From IMG/VR virus record IMGVR_UViG_2724679538_000002: 30,097 nucleotides of DNA, one strand, 5' to 3'. The position numbers and the translations under genes are program-made. This DNA comes from a virus. Lineage: Duplodnaviria > Heunggongvirae > Uroviricota > Caudoviricetes. Under the pieces are notes generated by a model. It was not told the origin of the DNA. It did not search any database and saw nothing but the letters and a program-made list of their open reading frames with translations. Positions 2,273-18,126 of this stretch are shown piece by piece (within the stretch, counting starts at the first letter, position 1; every line of letters begins with the position of its first letter).

Positions 2273-2761
2273 ATGAGTCTTTTGAATGAAGTTCAGAAAT
2301 TCATTGAAGCCCATCCGGGGTGTACTTCCGGAGACATTGCGGATGCTTTTGCAGGTTACTCACGGCAGCGCGTTCTGCAGTCAGCAAGCAAGTTACGTCA
2401 GAGTGGGCGTGTGGCTCACCGTTGTGAAGGGGATACACGCAGACATTTCCCGCGCCTGACTGAGAGAGCACAGGAGCCGGAACCACAACCAGTTCGTGAA
2501 ACCAGACCTGTGCGCAATTTCTATGTCGGCACTAACGATCCCCGTGTGATTTTGTGCCTGACCCGCCAGGCTGAAGAACTGGAGTCCAGGGGCTTATACC
2601 GTCGTGCTGCAACGGTGTGGATGGAGGCATTCCGTGAAAGCCACTCCCAGTCAGAACGAAACAATTTTCTGGCGCGCCGCGAGCGGTGTGTACGCAAAAG
2701 TAAAAGGTGCGTGGCATCGGGTGAAGAGTGGTATCTGCCAGGCAATTACGTGGGGGCTTAA
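2273..2761 (+). CDS. putative transcriptional regulator, PerC-like C-terminal region (tentative)
   Basis: 162-aa ORF starting 4 nt after the upstream stop. The C-terminal segment '...GLYRRAATVWMEAFRESHSQSERNNFLARRERC' resembles my recollection of PerC/Pch-type activators. Not verified. Confidence 0.4.
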   Translation: MSLLNEVQKFIEAHPGCTSGDIADAFAGYSRQRVLQSASKLRQSGRVAHRCEGDTRRHFPRLTERAQEPEPQPVRETRPVRNFYVGTNDPRVILCLTRQAEELESRGLYRRAATVWMEAFRESHSQSERNNFLARRERCVRKSKRCVASGEEWYLPGNYVGA

Positions 2762-3087
2762 TGACGACGTTAACTCAATGCCAGCAGCAGGTGCTGGATA
2801 TGCTGATTTCTTACCAGAAAGAACGTGGCTTCCCGCCAACCAATCAGGAGGTGGCAACCATGCTGGGATACCGTTCGGTGAATGCAGCGGTGGAGCATCT
2901 TCGCGCACTGGAGAAAAAAGGCGTCATCACGATAAAGCGTGGCGTGGCCCGGGGGATAACGCTTCATACCGCAGTGAAGGACGACGACAGCGAGACGGTC
3001 GGGATTATCCGCGCACTGCTTGCCGGTGAGGAAAACGCCAGGCTGCGTGCAACTCACTGGTTACATGAGAGGGGCCTGAAAGCATGA
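2761..3087 (+). CDS. LexA N-terminal DNA-binding-domain protein lacking the S24 peptidase domain
   Basis: 'MTTLTQCQQQVLDMLISYQKERGFPPTNQEVATMLGYRSVNAAVEHLRALEKKGVITIKRGVARGITL' aligns by eye with the E. coli LexA N-terminus ('[58 protein letters not shown]...'). The protein is only about 108 aa, so it has no room for the cleavage site or protease domain. Start overlaps the upstream stop (TAATG). Confidence 0.75.
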   Translation: MTTLTQCQQQVLDMLISYQKERGFPPTNQEVATMLGYRSVNAAVEHLRALEKKGVITIKRGVARGITLHTAVKDDDSETVGIIRALLAGEENARLRATHWLHERGLKA

Positions 3088-3473
3088 AGCTTATCCTGCC
3101 TTTTCCGCCCAGCGTGAACACGTACTGGCGACACCCTAACAAAGGGGCGTTTGCAGGTAAGAGCCTGATAAGCGCGGCGGGGCGAAAATTCCAGAGCGCG
3201 GCGTGCGCAGCAATAGTTGAGCAGTTACGTCGTCTGCCGAAACCAACGTCGGCACCTGCTTCAGTGGAGATCGTGTTGTTTCCTCCTGATAACCGGATCC
3301 GCGATCTGGACAACTATAACAAGGCGCTGTTTGACGCCCTGACCCACGCGGGTGTGTGGGAAGACGACAGCCAGGTAAAAAGAATGTTGGTGGAGTGGGG
3401 ACCGGTTATCCCGGAAGGGAAGGTCGAGATCACTATCAGTAAGTACGAGAAAACGGCGGGTGCAGCCGCCTGA
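3084..3473 (+). CDS. rusA: RusA-family Holliday junction resolvase
   Basis: 'MKLILPFPPSVNTYWRH...' with the conserved acidic region 'DLDNYNKALFDALTHAGVWEDDSQV'. Typical size (129 aa) and typical position in a lambdoid nin-like region. Confidence 0.9.
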   Translation: MKLILPFPPSVNTYWRHPNKGAFAGKSLISAAGRKFQSAACAAIVEQLRRLPKPTSAPASVEIVLFPPDNRIRDLDNYNKALFDALTHAGVWEDDSQVKRMLVEWGPVIPEGKVEITISKYEKTAGAAA

Positions 3474-3492
3474 TTAAGAGGAGAAACGAAGT

Positions 3493-4302
3493 ATGAATAA
3501 TCTGATGGTCATTGATGGTATTGAAGTTCGTCGTGATGCTTATGGACGTTACAGCCTGAACGATCTGCATCGTGCCGCAGTAGCATCTGGTGCAAATGCC
3601 AGAACGAAGGAGCCGGGAAAGTTTCTTTCCAGCCAACAGGCTGTTGAACTTGTTCAGGAATTGACCGATACCCAAAATTTGGGTATCGGTCCGGTTAATA
3701 CAGTTCGTGGTGGTCCTAAGCAGGGGAGTTATGTCTGCAAGGAACTGGTGTATGCCTATGCAATGTGGATCAGTCCGTCATTCCATCTGAAGGTGATCCG
3801 TATTTTCGATATGGTAGTCAGTGCACCGGAAAAATTATCCGGGCAGGCTGCTGACAAGATGCAGGCAGGTGTGATTCTGCTGGACTTTATGCGTCGGGAG
3901 TTAAACCTGTCTAACTCATCTGTGCTTGGGGCCTGTCAGAAACTCCAGGAGGCTGTTGGCTTACCGAATCTGGCACCGCGCTATGCCATTGATGCTCCGG
4001 CTGATGCGCCCGATGGTTCAAGCCGCGCCACGCTGTCACTGAGTGCACTGCTGAAGCTGTATGGTATCCGCCTGACGGCTAATCAGGCATATCACCAGAT
4101 GGCGAAGCTGGGGATCGTTGAACAACGCGAACGATACAGTCGTACCGCGATTAACAACATTAAAAAATTCTGGTCGCTGACGGCGAAAGGCTGCATGTTC
4201 GGCAAGAACATCACCAGTCCTGCAAATCCGCGCGAGACGCAGCCGCATTTCTTCGAATCCCGATTCCCTGAGCTGTTAAAGCTGCTCGATACCGTTCATT
4301 GA
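3493..4302 (+). CDS. KilA-N domain protein
   Basis: N-terminus 'MNNLMVIDGIEVRRDAYGRYSLNDLHRAA...KFLSSQQAVELV...VYAYAMWISPSFHLKVIRIF' has the characteristic KilA-N pattern. Good RBS ('aagaggag') upstream. Confidence 0.85.
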   Translation: MNNLMVIDGIEVRRDAYGRYSLNDLHRAAVASGANARTKEPGKFLSSQQAVELVQELTDTQNLGIGPVNTVRGGPKQGSYVCKELVYAYAMWISPSFHLKVIRIFDMVVSAPEKLSGQAADKMQAGVILLDFMRRELNLSNSSVLGACQKLQEAVGLPNLAPRYAIDAPADAPDGSSRATLSLSALLKLYGIRLTANQAYHQMAKLGIVEQRERYSRTAINNIKKFWSLTAKGCMFGKNITSPANPRETQPHFFESRFPELLKLLDTVH

Positions 4303-4303
4303 G

Positions 4304-5299
4304 GTGACCGTGAGAGCACTACTGACCCCTGAAATTGCCCCGCGTATGGGGATCGTATTGTTCAGACCAGGTTCAGAGCTGATGCCCCTGTTTATGCAGG
4401 GGCGTGTCCTGCTGGAGCCTGAGCCGGAACGTTATTCATCTTTTGCCAGTGGTGCCGTTCCGGCGGCATCACAACCGCTGGCGGATGATCCTGCCGTTCG
4501 GGGCGTGTTCCGCAATGAGGCAGTGATCCGTCGTGCTGGTGGCGTGGAATGTCTTGAAAGCTGGTTACTTCGTGAAAAGGGCTGTCAGTGGCCTCATTCC
4601 GACTGGCACAGCGAGAACATGACCACAATGCGCCACGCGCCTGGCGCAATCCGTCTGTGCTGGCACTGCGATAACCAGTTGCGTGACCAGTTCACGGAAC
4701 GGCTGGAATCAATGGCAACGGATAACTGTGCCCGCTGGGTGTTATCTGTTGTGCGCCGTGATCTCGGTTTTGATGACAGTCACGTTGTGACAATGCCGGA
4801 ACTGTGCTGGTGGCTGGTTCGTAATGACCTGGCGGATGCCTTACCGGAAAGTGCAGCCCGTAAGGCACTGAGATTACCGAAGCCTGTTGTGCCGTCTGTC
4901 ACCCGGGAAAGTGACATTGTGCCTTCGGTTCCGGCCACCAGCATCATCCAGGATAAAGCGAAAAAGGTGCTGGCGCTGAAAGTGGATCCGGAGTCGCCGG
5001 AGTCTTTTATGTTACGCCCAAAACGTCGCCGCTGGGTTAACGAAAAGTACACGTGCTGGGTTAAGACGCAGCCGTGTGCATGTTGTGGAAAGCCAGCCGA
5101 TGATCCCCACCACCTGATAGGCCACGGCCAAGGTGGAATGGGTACAAAAGCGCATGACCTCTTTGTATTGCCTTTGTGCAGAAAGCATCACGACGAGCTG
5201 CATGCGGATACCGTGGCATTTGAAGAGAAATATGGCTCCCAGCTGGAGCTGATATTTCGTTTTATCGATCGTGCGCTGGCAATTGGCGTGCTGGCCTGA
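4304..5299 (+). CDS. DUF968-like prophage protein with C-terminal Cys/His (HNH-like) cluster
   Basis: GTG start 1 nt after the KilA-N stop. The C-terminal 'CWVKTQPCACCGKPADDPHHLIGHG...LPLCRKHHDELH' is a zinc-binding/HNH-like motif. Sits immediately upstream of Q, as ydfU-like genes do in E. coli cryptic prophages (from memory). Confidence 0.5.
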   Translation: MTVRALLTPEIAPRMGIVLFRPGSELMPLFMQGRVLLEPEPERYSSFASGAVPAASQPLADDPAVRGVFRNEAVIRRAGGVECLESWLLREKGCQWPHSDWHSENMTTMRHAPGAIRLCWHCDNQLRDQFTERLESMATDNCARWVLSVVRRDLGFDDSHVVTMPELCWWLVRNDLADALPESAARKALRLPKPVVPSVTRESDIVPSVPATSIIQDKAKKVLALKVDPESPESFMLRPKRRRWVNEKYTCWVKTQPCACCGKPADDPHHLIGHGQGGMGTKAHDLFVLPLCRKHHDELHADTVAFEEKYGSQLELIFRFIDRALAIGVLA

Positions 5300-5316
5300 T
5301 TTTGTGGAGAAAGTTG

Positions 5317-5682
5317 ATGCGTGATATTCAGATGATTCTTGAACGTTGGGGAGCATGGGCTGCGAGTGATAACTCTGGTGTTGATTATTCACCTATAGCT
5401 GCTGGGTTTAAGGGGCTTCTTCCCTATACCAGCAAGACACGTCTGGCTTGTTCGGATAGTGATGCATTAATTATTGAAGGTTGTCTTGCTCGTCTAAAGC
5501 AAAAAAGACCTTATGAGCATTCGCTTCTTGTGGCACATTATTTATACAGAATATCCAAGCGTAAGATTGCAAAGGCGCGTGGAAAGGATGAGAAATTGAT
5601 ACGTATAGAAATACAGTTAGCCGAAGGATTTATTGATGGCTGCCTTTCCATGCTAGATCTAACATTAGATTTGGACGTTTAA
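5317..5682 (+). CDS. late-gene antitermination protein Q (short Q / QuuD-like family)
   Basis: 'MRDIQMILERWGAWAASDNSGVDYSPIAAGFKGLLP...CSDSDALIIEGCLARLKQ...' matches the short (about 125 aa) Q antiterminator family. RBS 'ggagaaag' precedes the ATG at 5317. Confidence 0.85.
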   Translation: MRDIQMILERWGAWAASDNSGVDYSPIAAGFKGLLPYTSKTRLACSDSDALIIEGCLARLKQKRPYEHSLLVAHYLYRISKRKIAKARGKDEKLIRIEIQLAEGFIDGCLSMLDLTLDLDV

Positions 5683-5683
5683 T

Positions 5684-5715
5684 AATACGCCCCATGCAGG
5701 GGCGTATTATTTACT
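5684..5715. terminator. bidirectional intrinsic terminator between convergent Q and KAP genes
   Basis: Perfect 10-bp stem 'aatacgcccc'/'ggggcgtatt' with a 5-nt loop, 1 nt after the Q stop and directly abutting the KAP gene stop, followed by a T-rich tract. Confidence 0.65.
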
Positions 5716-7042
5716 GGATGAATGACATTTGATTAATATATTTTATCAATAACTCTCTGGGTGTAGTACTCCAAAAATTTAGGTGTTCATAATCAGTATA
5801 AACATTTGTGAATTTTTTAAGTTCTTCATCACTTTTAGGGGCAAATCGCTCATTAAGAGTAATACTGTCTTTAATTATTCCGAAGAATACAATAGATATT
5901 TCAGGAATTTGTGATCTTCTCTCATAAGAATAAGGTATTTCTTTTATGTTAAGCAGGTCTGCTAAATGAGATATAGATTCAGCGGTAATTTCTTGTTTTA
6001 GTTTTTCCTTGTCACCAAAGCAATGTATGAAGACAGCTACGACAAAGATCCTATTTATTAAAGGATCACTGCTTTTGTACTCATCGTCGTTTAACAGTTG
6101 AAAAATGTTAAGATTACGTGAAAAAGTTTGTGTTTCACGTAAGGATAAGTTGGTTCGTTGAATTAAATCACGGATAAATCTACCAGATAAACTATTAATT
6201 TCATTTAGTGATTTCGTCTTGTCTACAAGGTAATTCCAATATATAACAGATGTTTTACATACGACGTGACCATCTATTAAACATGTATCTGGAAGCGTGA
6301 TGGTATATTTTATAAACTTGTCAAGATACTTTTGTGAGTTAATACTATAACCATAAATATGATTTATCGATGCTTTTAATTGTTCTGTGTTTGTAACTAA
6401 AATAAAAAAAACATTATTGATGTCAAAAATGTGTTTTATTGTTTCAATGACATTTGTTGAAAAACTCGGCTTACATCGGTCTAATTCATCAATTATAATT
6501 ACTATCTTTTGATTTTCTGAAATGCTTTCGATGCAAGATTTAAGTGAATTTATGTTTTTCTCTGATTCCATATGGTCTTCAAGCAAATTTTCAATAGTCC
6601 CATCTATTGCTGCATTGCTTGCTTTCTTCATCGCATCTTGGAATTCTTCGGCAACTTCACTAGCCTCCTGTCGTAAAAACCAACCTGCACCAGCTTTTAG
6701 TACCGTTTTTAAACCAAATCGAATTGCAGGAAGAGATCTCTTAATGAAGTGTTGTTTTTCTTCCTCAGGCAAAATGCTGGCAATTGCAGAGGTTATGAGA
6801 AGTAATGGAGATTCTGCATGATCCCCTTTAAAGGCATCAATATAAACAACTTTAGATTCGGTTTCTTGCTCAATAATGAGATTTTTCAGTTTGATACTAA
6901 ATTCTGTTTTCCCTGTTCCCCATGCGCCGTCTATTACCAGTGGTGAAATGTCTGCCTCTGGTTTTAGCAACTTGATGATATTTTCAGCGATGTTTCTTCG
7001 TTGGAACTCGTCACGTTCAGTGAAAGATAGTGTATCTAACAT
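5711..7042 (-). CDS. KAP-family P-loop NTPase
   Basis: Walker A in the KAP-typical form 'IDGAWGTGKTEF' and Walker B 'IVIIIDELDRC'. 443 aa with no alternative frame. Visibly AT-rich relative to flanking phage genes. Convergent with Q. Confidence 0.85.
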   Translation of the reverse strand: MLDTLSFTERDEFQRRNIAENIIKLLKPEADISPLVIDGAWGTGKTEFSIKLKNLIIEQETESKVVYIDAFKGDHAESPLLLITSAIASILPEEEKQHFIKRSLPAIRFGLKTVLKAGAGWFLRQEASEVAEEFQDAMKKASNAAIDGTIENLLEDHMESEKNINSLKSCIESISENQKIVIIIDELDRCKPSFSTNVIETIKHIFDINNVFFILVTNTEQLKASINHIYGYSINSQKYLDKFIKYTITLPDTCLIDGHVVCKTSVIYWNYLVDKTKSLNEINSLSGRFIRDLIQRTNLSLRETQTFSRNLNIFQLLNDDEYKSSDPLINRIFVVAVFIHCFGDKEKLKQEITAESISHLADLLNIKEIPYSYERRSQIPEISIVFFGIIKDSITLNERFAPKSDEELKKFTNVYTDYEHLNFWSTTPRELLIKYINQMSFIQ

Positions 7043-7165
7043 AATATAAACCTGTTAACTCCTACAGTAAAAAACGAATAATACGACTTTGGGATTAAAA
7101 ATCATTAACGCGGTCCGCAAAAATTCTTGTAATCTGTTAAGAGTGGTTACTTCGCCACACAGCTT

Positions 7166-7191
7166 AAACCCGCTGTCGAGCGGGTTTTTTT
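7166..7191 (+). terminator. intrinsic terminator with no upstream + strand gene (possible tR'-like terminator of a short late leader RNA)
   Basis: Stem 'aaacccgc'/'gcgggttt' with loop 'tgtcga', followed by 7 T residues. It sits in the KAP-to-next-gene intergenic region. Confidence 0.5.
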
Positions 7192-7314
7192 GTACCTGTA
7201 AACCTGGTGCAGTACGGTAAACACGCTGGTGGTAGTGAATACTGATTTTTTATCTTGCTGGCTTTTTAGACAAGAGTTATTGGTATGTCATGTTAACCAT
7301 GAAGGTAAAAAGAC

Positions 7315-7509
7315 ATGCTAAAACAGCAAGATATGACAGAAACGGCGAAAGTTGTTTTTAATGAATTAAGCATCGAACCGGCAACAGTCGGGGAGATTGC
7401 ACAAAACACATACCTTTCACGCGAACGCTGTCAGTTAATACTGACCCAGTTGGTTATGGCGGGGCTGGCAGATTACCAGTTCGGCTGTTACAGACGCCTT
7501 CAGCAATGA
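7315..7509 (+). CDS. small winged-helix-like DNA-binding protein (possibly PapI/FaeA-like)
   Basis: 64-aa ORF with RBS 'aagg'. The pattern 'VVFNELSIEPATVGEIAQNTYLSRERCQLILTQLVMAGLA' is compatible with a small wHTH regulator. Family assignment is a guess. Confidence 0.4.
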   Translation: MLKQQDMTETAKVVFNELSIEPATVGEIAQNTYLSRERCQLILTQLVMAGLADYQFGCYRRLQQ

Positions 7510-7658
7510 AGGGCTTTTAATTTGTGAAAATGGGCGGCTGGTGGGTGTTGGTAGCACCTGCCAGCCATTCGCTCATGCTTACTGGTCACAAGCGAACCAC
7601 GGCCCACTGCTTTAGCGCAAAAGCAGAGTGAGCCTACCAGAGTTACGCTTACTGATCC

Positions 7659-16091: not shown

Positions 16092-18126
16092 TCCCCGCGC
16101 CAGCCTTGCGGGTGTCGATGCCGCAAACGGTCAGTGCTGGTACGAAATCCGTGCGCAGGCAACCGGACGGGTGGAAATTTTCCTCTATGACGTGATTGGT
16201 GGATGGGGCATCACCGCGCAGCAGTTTATCGCTGACTGTAAAGATGCGGGGGTGTTTGAGGCCAGCGCCATTGATCTGCATATCCACAGTCCGGGTGGTG
16301 ATGTGATGCAGGGCTTTGCCATCTTTAACACGCTGTCACGCCTGAAAGCGAAGGTGGATATCTGGGTGGATGGTGTCGCTGCCAGTATGGCATCGATGAT
16401 CGTCTGCCTTCCCGGAGCCACAGTGCATATGCCTGAAAACGCCTGGATTATGGTGCATAAGCCCTGGGGCGGGATCGCCGGTGATTCCGATGATATGCGT
16501 GATTATGCCGACTGGCTGGATCGCAACGAGGCGCTGATGCTGTCTGCCTACATGAATAAAACCGGACTGGGGCAGGAGGAGCTGGAGGCCATGCTGAAAG
16601 CGGAAACCTGGCTCAGCGGCGCTGAAGCTGTGGAAAAGGGCTTTGCAGACTCCCTCGAACCCGAATTACAGGCTGCGGCCTGTGTGAACCAAAATAAACT
16701 GAAGGATTATCAGAATATGCCAGAACAGGTTAATGCTCTTTTTGCTCCGCGTGCAGAAACTCAGGTTACCCCACCGCAGGCCAGCCAGCCTCCGGCACCA
16801 CAGGTATCTCAGGACACGCAGCAGCCAGGCGCCGTAGATATTGCCGCGCTGGCCACTCAGCTTCAGCAGCAGATGCAGGCTGCCAATGCGGAACGCGTGA
16901 ACGCTGTCTCTGCCGTGTTCGACGCATTTCCGGCATTTGCCTCGCTGAAAGCGGAATGCCTGAGCGATTTCACCTGCTCGGCTGAAAAAGCCCGTGAACG
17001 ACTGCTGCAGGCGCTGGCGGCGGGTACCACGCCCTGTGCCGGGCCGGGAGCAGCACACATTTACGCAGGCAACGGCAATCTGGTGGGTGATTCCATCCGT
17101 GCAGCAGTGATGGCTCGCGCAGGGTACAGCGAAGCCGAAAAAGACAATGCCTATAACGGCTTTACGTTACGCGAACTGGCGCGTGCCTCACTGGTGGATC
17201 GCGGCATCGGGATTTCAGGACATGCCGCACCGATGGCAATGGTGGGGCTGGCATTCACCCACAGTGGCAGTGACTTTGGCAATATCCTGATGGATGTTGC
17301 TCACAAAGCGGTACTGCAGGGCTGGGACAGCGCCAGTGAAACGTTTGATCAGTGGACCCGCAAGGGCACACTGTCAGATTTTAAAACTGCCCACCGTGTG
17401 GGGCTGGAGGCTTTCCCGACCCTGCGACAGGTTCAGCCGGGCGCTGAATATAAGTATGTAACCCTTAAAGATCGTGGTGAGCCCATTGCGCTGGCTACGT
17501 ATGGCGAACTCTTCAGCATTGATCGCCAGACCATCATTAACGATGACCTGGATATGCTGACCCGTATTCCGATGGCAATGGGCGCGGCAGCGCGTACCAC
17601 GGTGGGCGATCTTGTCTGGGCCGTACTGACCAGCAACCCGAAAATGTCTGATGGTAAACCGTTGTTCCATGCCGATCACGGCAACCTGGTGACTGCGGAT
17701 CTGTCCATTGAAGGACTGGATGCAGGGCGTAAAGCCATGTTGCTGCAAAAGTCCGGTAGCCGCCGCCTGAATATTCGTCCGGCCTTTATGCTGACACCTG
17801 TTGCCATTGAATCCCGGGCAAGTCAGTTAATTAAATCTGCCAGTGTACCGGGGGCAGATGCCAACAGCGGCATTGTTAATCCGATCCAGAACTTTGCCAC
17901 CGTTCTGTCAGAAGCCCGTCTGGATGACAGCAGCCCGACCGATTATTACCTGGTGGCGGCACAGGGGCGTGACACAATTGAAGTGGCCTATCTTGACGGT
18001 ATCGATACTCCGTATCTGGAACAGCAGCAGGGCTTTACCGTTGACGGGGCCGCATTCAAAGTGCGCATTGATGCCGGGGTCGCACCGCTTGACTGGCGGG
18101 GCATGGTTAAAGTCAAAAAACAGTAA
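16048..18126 (+). CDS. fused prohead protease (ClpP/S49-like) - scaffold - HK97-fold major capsid protein (tripartite capsid gene)
   Basis: N-terminal ClpP-like region 'IHSPGGDVMQGFAIFNTLSRLKAKVDIWVDGVAASMASMIVC...MVHKPWGG'. A Q/A/P-rich linker. C-terminal region 'LDGIDTPYLEQQQGFTVDGAAFKVRIDAGVAPLDW' is capsid-like. Start chosen at the ATG with RBS 'aaaggag' (in-frame alternative at 16081). Confidence 0.8.
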   Translation: MQRMISPPRRGMTINPRASLAGVDAANGQCWYEIRAQATGRVEIFLYDVIGGWGITAQQFIADCKDAGVFEASAIDLHIHSPGGDVMQGFAIFNTLSRLKAKVDIWVDGVAASMASMIVCLPGATVHMPENAWIMVHKPWGGIAGDSDDMRDYADWLDRNEALMLSAYMNKTGLGQEELEAMLKAETWLSGAEAVEKGFADSLEPELQAAACVNQNKLKDYQNMPEQVNALFAPRAETQVTPPQASQPPAPQVSQDTQQPGAVDIAALATQLQQQMQAANAERVNAVSAVFDAFPAFASLKAECLSDFTCSAEKARERLLQALAAGTTPCAGPGAAHIYAGNGNLVGDSIRAAVMARAGYSEAEKDNAYNGFTLRELARASLVDRGIGISGHAAPMAMVGLAFTHSGSDFGNILMDVAHKAVLQGWDSASETFDQWTRKGTLSDFKTAHRVGLEAFPTLRQVQPGAEYKYVTLKDRGEPIALATYGELFSIDRQTIINDDLDMLTRIPMAMGAAARTTVGDLVWAVLTSNPKMSDGKPLFHADHGNLVTADLSIEGLDAGRKAMLLQKSGSRRLNIRPAFMLTPVAIESRASQLIKSASVPGADANSGIVNPIQNFATVLSEARLDDSSPTDYYLVAAQGRDTIEVAYLDGIDTPYLEQQQGFTVDGAAFKVRIDAGVAPLDWRGMVKVKKQ

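Follow-up and report, generated by a model that had tools for sequence, protein, structure and literature searches.

A compact KAP-family NTPase cassette beside the Q gene of a lambdoid prophage: a candidate single-gene phage defence

PifA of the F plasmid, which excludes phage T7, is a membrane-associated protein without obvious transmembrane helices that aborts T7 infection. In Enterococcus faecalis, EF_KAP and its relatives are KAP NTPases with unknown C-terminal regions that protect their host; protection requires Walker B and, in EF_KAP, the C-terminal region as well, and EF_KAP is reported as not abortive (PMC13552941). Reve, a single-gene KAP system from P4 hotspots, was chosen from P4 genes that carried no DefenseFinder or PADLOC defence annotation, and protects E. 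coli (PMC13586616). Here, we analysed a KAP-family P-loop NTPase gene in a stretch of viral DNA of 30,097 nucleotides (IMG/VR record IMGVR_UViG_2724679538_000002; the whole stretch is called the window), where it lies on the minus strand beside the antiterminator gene Q. An earlier note on this DNA had taken the gene for a horizontally acquired, single-gene anti-phage defence.

We consider it probable, with considerable doubt remaining, that the KAP gene and its short flanks form a moron of a lambdoid prophage, and that it most likely acts, as a single gene, to protect the lysogen from other phages. The idea of defence is already on record as a prediction, in the RefSeq annotation and the candidate listing of PADLOC. 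What we add is the exact boundaries of the insertion between Q and a late-promoter block, with the corresponding empty and alternatively occupied sites, together with three context-bound clades of relatives (including one embedded in restriction operons), a conserved motif in an insertion of the NTPase domain and a recombining C-terminal half.

The cassette and its insertion site

The window is a lambdoid prophage of E. coli, complete-looking over the stretch covered, in which the KAP gene is packed against Q (Table 1). As an empty-site test, a synthetic junction in which the end of Q was joined to positions 7086-7400 was aligned to complete E. coli genomes, and it aligned as one continuous piece in 71 of them. 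In strain SY033, Q is followed immediately by the conserved block, and homology between the window and the empty site resumes at ~7098. The alignment therefore bounds the cassette at 5683 and ~7097, so that it comprises a hairpin, the KAP gene and 55 bases upstream of it (~1.4 kb in all). In phage cdtI (NC_009514), a different two-gene minus-strand cassette (4304-5692) lies between Q and the late-promoter block; its genes are orf53 (147 aa, no family) and orf54 (313 aa, DUF6731), and neither has a PADLOC match. Thus, some prophages have nothing at this site, some have the KAP gene and others carry different cargo. This bears out the moron status proposed in the earlier note, since the cassette is missing from collinear relatives in which its flanks are adjacent and is replaced by another in cdtI. 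Among the hallmarks of morons, the hairpin and a deviant base composition are present (the KAP gene has 32.7% GC against 52.4% in the remaining window, in agreement with the AT-richness already remarked upon), and the candidate promoter is not above chance.

The left end of the cassette is formed by the hairpin, which is carried by the 28-nt gap between the stop codons of Q (5680-5682) and the KAP gene (5711-5713). Folding gave -20.9 kcal/mol (z-score -5.8 against shuffled sequences) for the plus strand and -21.4 kcal/mol (z-score -6.5) for the minus strand. At the equivalent place, the loci of Citrobacter, Klebsiella, Enterobacter and Salmonella each carry a GC-rich hairpin that differs in sequence, and the hairpin is not present in the aligned empty site. 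The two genes had been said to share one hairpin terminator; the 13-bp hairpin does span the gap, but its T-tails are weak and a consensus terminator scan did not call it. At the other end of the cassette, a -10-like TATTAT lies upstream of the KAP gene (7083-7078, minus strand) and -10-like elements are similarly spaced in other loci, although promoter-like matches in this region were no commoner than in shuffled sequences in a consensus scan. A GCGGACCGC motif, 60-75 bases upstream of the KAP start, is common to each of the lambdoid KAP loci.

Part of the DNA bound by Q at the late promoter pR′ lies between the -35 and -10 elements (PMC6266700). In the conserved block to the right of the cassette, the palindrome GCGGTCCGC lies between a candidate -35 and a candidate -10, and is a candidate Q-binding element; it is invariant in all loci with this type of Q, whether or not they hold the cassette (the window, L002, L006, L016, L019 and L100). 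The terminator within the block was called by the terminator scan as well as by folding analysis, and the annotation of phage SfV likewise has a terminator here, downstream of its Q gene. We therefore read the block, from its sequence features, as a putative pR′ with its Q-utilisation site and tR′. The assignment stays putative because the promoter hexamers could not be fixed: the best -10 candidate has no A at position 2, where one is usual, and the consensus scan gave no more sites than in shuffled sequences.

The position of the KAP gene between Q and the putative pR′, read against lytic transcription, argues that it is not a Q-dependent late gene such as stx. The earlier note had placed it between Q and the lysis cassette. 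Adjacency to Q stands, but the gene is not beside the lysis genes: it lies upstream of pR′ and 2.7 kb from the holin gene (at 9755), from which it is separated by the conserved block, a 64-aa open reading frame (ORF), a DNA methyltransferase gene, a 100-aa ORF and a second minus-strand ORF.

The protein, its relatives and their variation

The 443-aa product is a P-loop NTPase of the KAP family, complete in length and in its catalytic motifs. The Pfam KAP_NTPase profile (PF07693; cut-off 20 bits) matched it with 237 bits (E 2.7e-70) over practically the whole domain, from residue 15 to residue 317 and from profile position 1 to 292 of 293. Both the Walker A (GxxxxGK[ST]) and Walker B (hhhhDE, here VIIIDE at residues 181-186) signatures of the family are intact. 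PADLOC model PDLC04956 (PDC-S20) matched residues 3-442 at profile positions 4-449 of 450 (E 4.3e-177), with weaker matches of the NTPase part to PifA (4e-18) and QatA (5e-12). These searches agree with the earlier note, which had described the minus-strand ORF and its two motifs, assigned it to the KAP family and suggested a role in defence. The note had also supposed that the protein may lack the membrane insertions of many KAP proteins. Indeed, no transmembrane segment was found in it (the 19-residue Kyte-Doolittle mean peaks at 1.34), nor are there transmembrane helices inserted in the NTPase domain, which are common but not universal in the KAP family, and the insertion of its family members has no hydrophobic segment.

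At NCBI the exact protein is listed as 'MULTISPECIES: KAP family NTPase [Escherichia]' from 60 contigs, and its 90%-identity cluster has 2,139 members, mostly Salmonella among the 15 listed. This allele group is found beside Q in 50 of 5,426 complete E. coli genomes (~1%), and 374 of 403 pattern-matched stretches in IMG/VR encode KAP relatives. Among sequenced phage isolates, close matches to the gene are almost lacking. A plasmid-borne family like that of PifA was ruled out by a single full-length family match in 72,556 plasmid records. In PHROGs, the protein falls in a group of unknown function, and the PADLOC models PD-T4, PD-T7 and PD-lambda gave no match. Literature searches found nothing that names or tests PDC-S20, and nothing specific on KAP proteins in lambdoid prophages or on STM2238, a Salmonella gene considered below; the preprint of Vassallo et al. 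does not mention KAP, P-loop or NTPase.

To what extent the relatives share a genomic context was assessed in the 80 best IMG/VR contigs and in a wider sample. In the contigs, the KAP gene was convergent with Q in 50, lay between a CI repressor and an integrase gene in 25 and was at a contig edge or split in five. The 25 CI-integrase contigs are P2/186-like and have all three genes on one strand, which in these phages is the lysogenic operon. The integrase-to-primase region is a recognised minor defence hotspot of P2 (PMC13586616). Lambdoid prophages of Citrobacter and Klebsiella carry relatives that are 62-67% identical, convergent to Q and ahead of the lysis genes, and those of Enterobacter carry relatives that are 46-49% identical in the same position. 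The wider sample consisted of 24 full-length relatives from outside the enterobacteria, in other Gammaproteobacteria and more distant bacteria (Shewanella, Psychrobacter, Alteromonas, Aliidiomarina and Neisseria among them). Type I restriction genes dominate around them, the neighbours including genes for Methylase_S (13), ResIII (9), N6_Mtase (8), HSDR_N (7) and YgjP-like (7) proteins, and at least seven loci are Type I restriction operons in the order hsdM-hsdS-KAP-hsdR.

Relatives from the three contexts match one PADLOC model (E <= 1e-157), and in a neighbour-joining tree, built without support values, they form three clades, namely lambdoid Q-convergent, P2/186-like CI-integrase and Type I restriction. 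The Q-linked proteins make up one old clade that diverged in place. The earlier note would have been weakened by close homologues that consistently occupy non-defence contexts and have a demonstrated unrelated function; homologues were found at two accessory sites of prophages and inside Type I restriction operons, and not at housekeeping loci.

Several observations were made around these loci. In L021, L022, L025, L026, L029, L031, L032 and L044 (around 2600-11700 in each), which come from Shewanella, Psychrobacter, Alteromonas, Aliidiomarina and related genomes, hsdM, hsdS, the KAP gene and hsdR are accompanied by a gene for a YgjP-like metallopeptidase. The Citrobacter lambdoid prophage L004 has a colicin-like gene, a GIY-YIG gene and a SLATT_5 and reverse-transcriptase pair at 12240-17258, and the E. 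coli P2-like prophages L009-L012 have AAA_13, AIPR or HEPN genes at another hotspot (1-1100).

In Salmonella Typhimurium L019 (AAYVPS010000009.1, 1-16240), an orthologue with 92% identity lies with Q and DUF968 in a degraded prophage remnant that has no head or tail genes nearby, and it is intact, which indicates that the KAP gene was kept after the phage died. Between the two orthologues dN/dS is 0.14, and dS is 0.275 for the KAP gene and 0.26 for Q; since these values are alike, the two genes were inherited together. The remnant adjoins genes for an LRR and NEL effector (788 aa, SspH2-like) and an acyltransferase (609 aa, OafA-like). We take the remnant to be SPI-12 and its KAP gene to be STM2238, an assumption that could not be verified. 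STM2238 is ~2-fold up on PreA overexpression, which applies to the KAP gene only if that identity is correct. The Q gene of SPI-12, STM2239, is regulated by SsrB and contributes to fitness in vivo (review PMC7380047).

An AlphaFold model (mean pLDDT 81.6) shows a P-loop core, in which a helical insertion of 80 residues separates Walker A from Walker B, and a C-terminal half made up entirely of helices. The insertion carries a basic motif, K-x-L-P-A-[IL]-R-F-G-L-K-T-x-L-K-A-G-x-G-W, in which P105, A106, K116 and L123 do not vary in 43 enterobacterial homologues and W121 hardly does. Both the lambdoid and the P2-like clade keep this motif, and wider relatives change W121 (to H or F) and, in some cases, P105 or A106. 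Going by the family description, the insertion appears to lie at the position of the transmembrane helices in canonical KAP proteins. A transmembrane or pore-loop reading of it was rejected because it is not hydrophobic and its tryptophan is replaced by histidine in the restriction-linked clade. A sequence search of solved structures gave no match at E <= 1; in a fold search with the model, the nearest solved fold was RdrA of RADAR, at a sequence identity of 12-13%.

The two halves of the protein differ in their conservation. Over 42 aligned homologues, mean identity was 56-61% for residues 1-262 and 20% for residues 318-443, with hardly any gaps, and the length is kept at ~440-460 aa across relatives. 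Close alleles gave dN/dS values of 0.05-0.18 for the N-terminal half and of 0.2-0.45 for the C-terminal half. Pairwise values were all below 0.55, which rules out gene-wide positive selection, and the gene is under purifying selection despite its hypervariable C-terminal half. When the window copy (5714-7042) was compared with that of L115 (5001-6329), dS rose sevenfold, from 0.037 in codons 1-262 to 0.265 in codons 263-443; such a jump within one gene indicates that the C-terminal half was exchanged by recombination between alleles. Hardly any residue of this half is invariant, which speaks against its being an enzymatic effector, and we infer that it is a specificity or sensor domain. Across loci, Q is 74-89% identical where the KAP protein is 46-92% identical, and across genera Q is 74-78% identical with the KAP protein down to 46-66%. 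In the IMG/VR contigs L136 and L137 the KAP match is split or shortened despite 97-98% identity, which suggests frameshifted copies in some prophages.

Table 1. Coordinates of the KAP cassette, its parts and its flanks in the window
Feature	Position	Strand	Details
Antiterminator Q gene	5302..5682	+	126 aa; left anchor of the insertion site, convergent with KAP; Pfam Phage_antitermQ PF06530, E 2e-51; phrog_79
GC-rich hairpin, left cassette end	5681..5711	.	13-bp stem and 5-nt loop; candidate bidirectional terminator between two stop codons
KAP-family P-loop NTPase gene	5711..7042	-	443 aa, ATG start; PADLOC candidate PDC-S20; phrog_8614
Variable C-terminal all-helical half	5714..6256	-	Residues 263-443; model helical, pLDDT 73-94
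Walker B	6473..6502	-	VIIIDELDRC, residues 181-190; IDELDRC[KR]P invariant in all clades
Helical insertion in NTPase domain	6518..6766	-	Residues 93-175; AlphaFold helices 93-114, 128-142, 151-175
Walker A	6905..6928	-	GAWGTGKT, residues 39-46; motif DGxWGTGKTEF invariant across three context clades
Cassette-specific KAP 5′ region, right cassette end	7043..7097	-	Ribosome-binding site and part of the putative own promoter
Conserved block, directly after Q in empty-site prophages	7098..7194	+	Palindrome GCGGTCCGC at 7110-7118; strong intrinsic terminator 7166-7187 and T run

Possible roles of the KAP protein

As a single-gene candidate defence the KAP gene is plausible, with an anti-phage activity predicted from its sequence and setting; we rate a defence role as moderately likely and the details of any mechanism as much less certain. 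Defence of the lysogen is favoured because the gene has a foreign composition, a cassette structure and an orientation opposite to the lytic genes, because it is under purifying selection even in a dead prophage, because the family occupies prophage accessory sites and restriction operons, and because a conserved engine is joined to a variable recognition domain in a protein whose nearest relatives are defence ATPases. The gene would be expressed in the lysogen from its own promoter, and the fast-evolving C-terminal helical half would recognise a product of the infecting phage. Recognition would then switch on the NTPase half, which might form a ring or oligomer, as in RdrA. Since no partner gene, effector domain or membrane helix was found, the activity is placed in the NTPase and the conserved insertion: the antiviral effect could come from the NTPase (by nucleotide consumption or mechanical work on a target), from the basic insertion, which may replace the transmembrane hairpin of classical KAP proteins, or from both. 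The outcome might, with low confidence, be PifA-like, with membrane or energy integrity lost and the infection aborted.

Several points weigh against defence of the lysogen. We found no experimental report on this KAP family in the literature, and the PDC entries of PADLOC are candidates of which some are doubtful (PDC-S12 is YecA, and PDC-S07 is in 99% of Enterobacter genomes). With no effector domain, partner gene or transmembrane segment found at this locus, the blocking or killing step is pure inference. Expression in the lysogen is likewise putative, because the KAP promoter was not called above chance, and AT-rich cargo may, as a general point in the literature, be silenced by H-NS. The conserved insertion is modelled with low confidence (pLDDT < 50 at residues 113-130 and 140-155), and the finding that EF_KAP is not abortive does not fit a PifA-like outcome. 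Furthermore, the Q-linked clade looks like a long-term resident of one phage lineage and not like rapidly swapped cargo.

That residence beside Q is also what would be expected if the KAP protein served the life cycle of the prophage itself, in Q-dependent late transcription, lysis timing or induction, so that the linkage to Q and pR′ would be functional. Even at 43-48% identity, the gene is still found beside Q, with its upstream region directly next to the pR′ block, and the dS values in Salmonella show that the two genes travel together. We nevertheless regard such a role as improbable: its transcription runs counter to that of the lytic genes, the same type of Q occurs in many prophages that have no KAP gene, sister clades in P2-like prophages and restriction operons lack any Q, and the gene persists in a Salmonella remnant that has lost the capacity to produce phage. 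The same remnant, with its SspH2-like NEL effector and OafA-like acyltransferase beside a 92%-identical orthologue, could instead point to a host-fitness or virulence-associated gene that is unrelated to phages and benefits the bacterium in an animal host. To this we give slightly less weight again, as these observations concern neighbouring genes and a gene, STM2238, that is assumed to be the KAP gene, and as the family extends to marine and environmental bacteria, where it sits in restriction operons.

A different possibility is that the KAP protein is inactive alone and belongs to a larger system, in which it would act as sensor or regulator together with a partner encoded elsewhere, for instance a host nuclease or restriction enzyme. 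This is unlikely but has more in its favour. RdrA, the nearest fold, works with RdrB; homology to QatA, which needs QatBCD, is detectable; one clade lies inside Type I restriction operons; and the protein has neither an effector domain nor conserved catalytic residues in its C-terminal half. Yet 75 of the 80 viral contigs have only core phage genes on both flanks, with no conserved companion, PADLOC models the gene as a single-gene candidate and single-gene KAP defences exist. Least credible of all is an inert passenger or decaying gene without current function. The foreign, AT-rich composition, the split matches in L136 and L137 and the many truncated 'partial' entries in the protein cluster, which may just be contig ends, would accord with decay, but dN/dS is low in both halves across many allele pairs, the catalytic motifs are invariant over three deep clades and the length of the protein is kept.

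Defence of the lysogen could also be combined with the placement of the cassette, in which case the compact KAP protein would be a minimal, effector-less immune sensor and its site a built-in safety switch; we consider this combination quite unlikely. The swappable C-terminal half would pick the target, and the NTPase with the basic insertion, a soluble remnant of the transmembrane hairpin, would be the weapon. On induction, antiterminated transcription passing through Q would continue beyond the shared hairpin and run antisense across the KAP gene, and the firing of pR′ beside the KAP upstream region would further block the KAP promoter. The prophage would thereby silence its own defence only during its replication.

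If the cassette proves protective, it would validate PDC-S20, a whole catalogued candidate family often found in prophages of enterobacteria, the junction between Q and pR′ in lambdoid prophages would join the list of defence sites, and a small, partner-less KAP NTPase would offer a tractable model of how this ATPase class senses and stops phages. The three niche-tied deep clades and the recombining C-terminal half are material for mapping specificity. If it does not protect, the family would serve as a further warning about candidates put forward by guilt by association.

Neighbouring genes and comparison with known systems

To the left of the KAP gene, the window encodes an Ant/Rha-like regulator, a replication O-like protein, RusA, KilA-N, a DUF968/HNH protein and Q, in this order. 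To its right come the 64-aa ORF, the DNA methyltransferase, the 100-aa ORF, the second minus-strand ORF and the holin, endolysin and spanin genes, followed by those for terminase, portal, protease-capsid and tape measure. The only modification gene near the KAP gene is the orphan phage methyltransferase (7659-8711). The 100-aa ORF after it (8717-9019, plus strand) had no match in Pfam, PHROGs or PADLOC, and no tRNA genes were found in the window.

The second minus-strand ORF (9016-9540, 174 aa) has a lower GC content, lies just upstream of the holin gene and converges on the late operon. Its product belongs to phrog_5663, has no PADLOC match, and is rare (14 clusters among 5.8 billion proteins), with homologues that carry DUF2441 (PF10386); it may be another accessory gene. 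At the left end of the window, Rfam identified isrK (443-519, 67 bits) and C4 antisense RNA (544-631, 84 bits) on the plus strand. The two RNAs fall within ORF 83-1234, in its 5′ part; residues 61-383 of the encoded protein match an Ant/Rha-like regulator (phrog_821). Positions 443-631 look like an antirepressor module controlled by antisense RNA, of the P1/Gifsy type, and the true start of the ORF 83-1234 protein is probably downstream of the two RNAs.

Among described systems, the Tmn (YobI-like) membrane P-loop NTPase defence of E. coli has transmembrane helices, and it gave no match to the KAP protein. The likeness to QatA is weak and confined to the P-loop (35 bits with the NCBIfam QatA model, against a cut-off of 600), and the neighbours of the window KAP gene are Q and the late-promoter block in place of QatB, QatC and QatD. 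RdrA is ~800-850 aa and works with the adenosine deaminase RdrB; no RdrB gene lies near the KAP gene, and PADLOC gave no RdrA match to its product. PrrC, in the prr locus, is a defence gene embedded in a Type I restriction locus. The marine-gammaproteobacterial clade of the present family resembles it in sitting between hsdS and hsdR, whereas the window copy, unlike restriction-embedded defence genes, has no restriction enzyme adjoining.

Closer comparisons are offered by single-gene systems. The NTPase of PifA is homologous (residues 7-252 against PifA positions 13-255, E 4e-18), and PifA, like the KAP cassette, is a single-gene system on a mobile element, the carrier being a plasmid in one case and a prophage in the other. 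The architecture is not that of PifA, however, because the PifA profile extends over 720 positions and the 443-aa KAP protein matches nothing beyond 255. EF_KAP differs in having two modelled transmembrane helices and a 322-aa C-terminal region, compared with none and ~180 aa here. Reve, drawn from genes without PADLOC annotation, is probably different, since PADLOC recognises the family of the window KAP protein. EF_KAP and Reve nevertheless share with it that a single protein, on a mobile element, has a KAP P-loop followed by an unknown C-terminal region. The closest of all is PDC-S20, with the same length (~445 aa), a single gene and no structural difference; the KAP gene of this prophage belongs to PDC-S20, a computational candidate.

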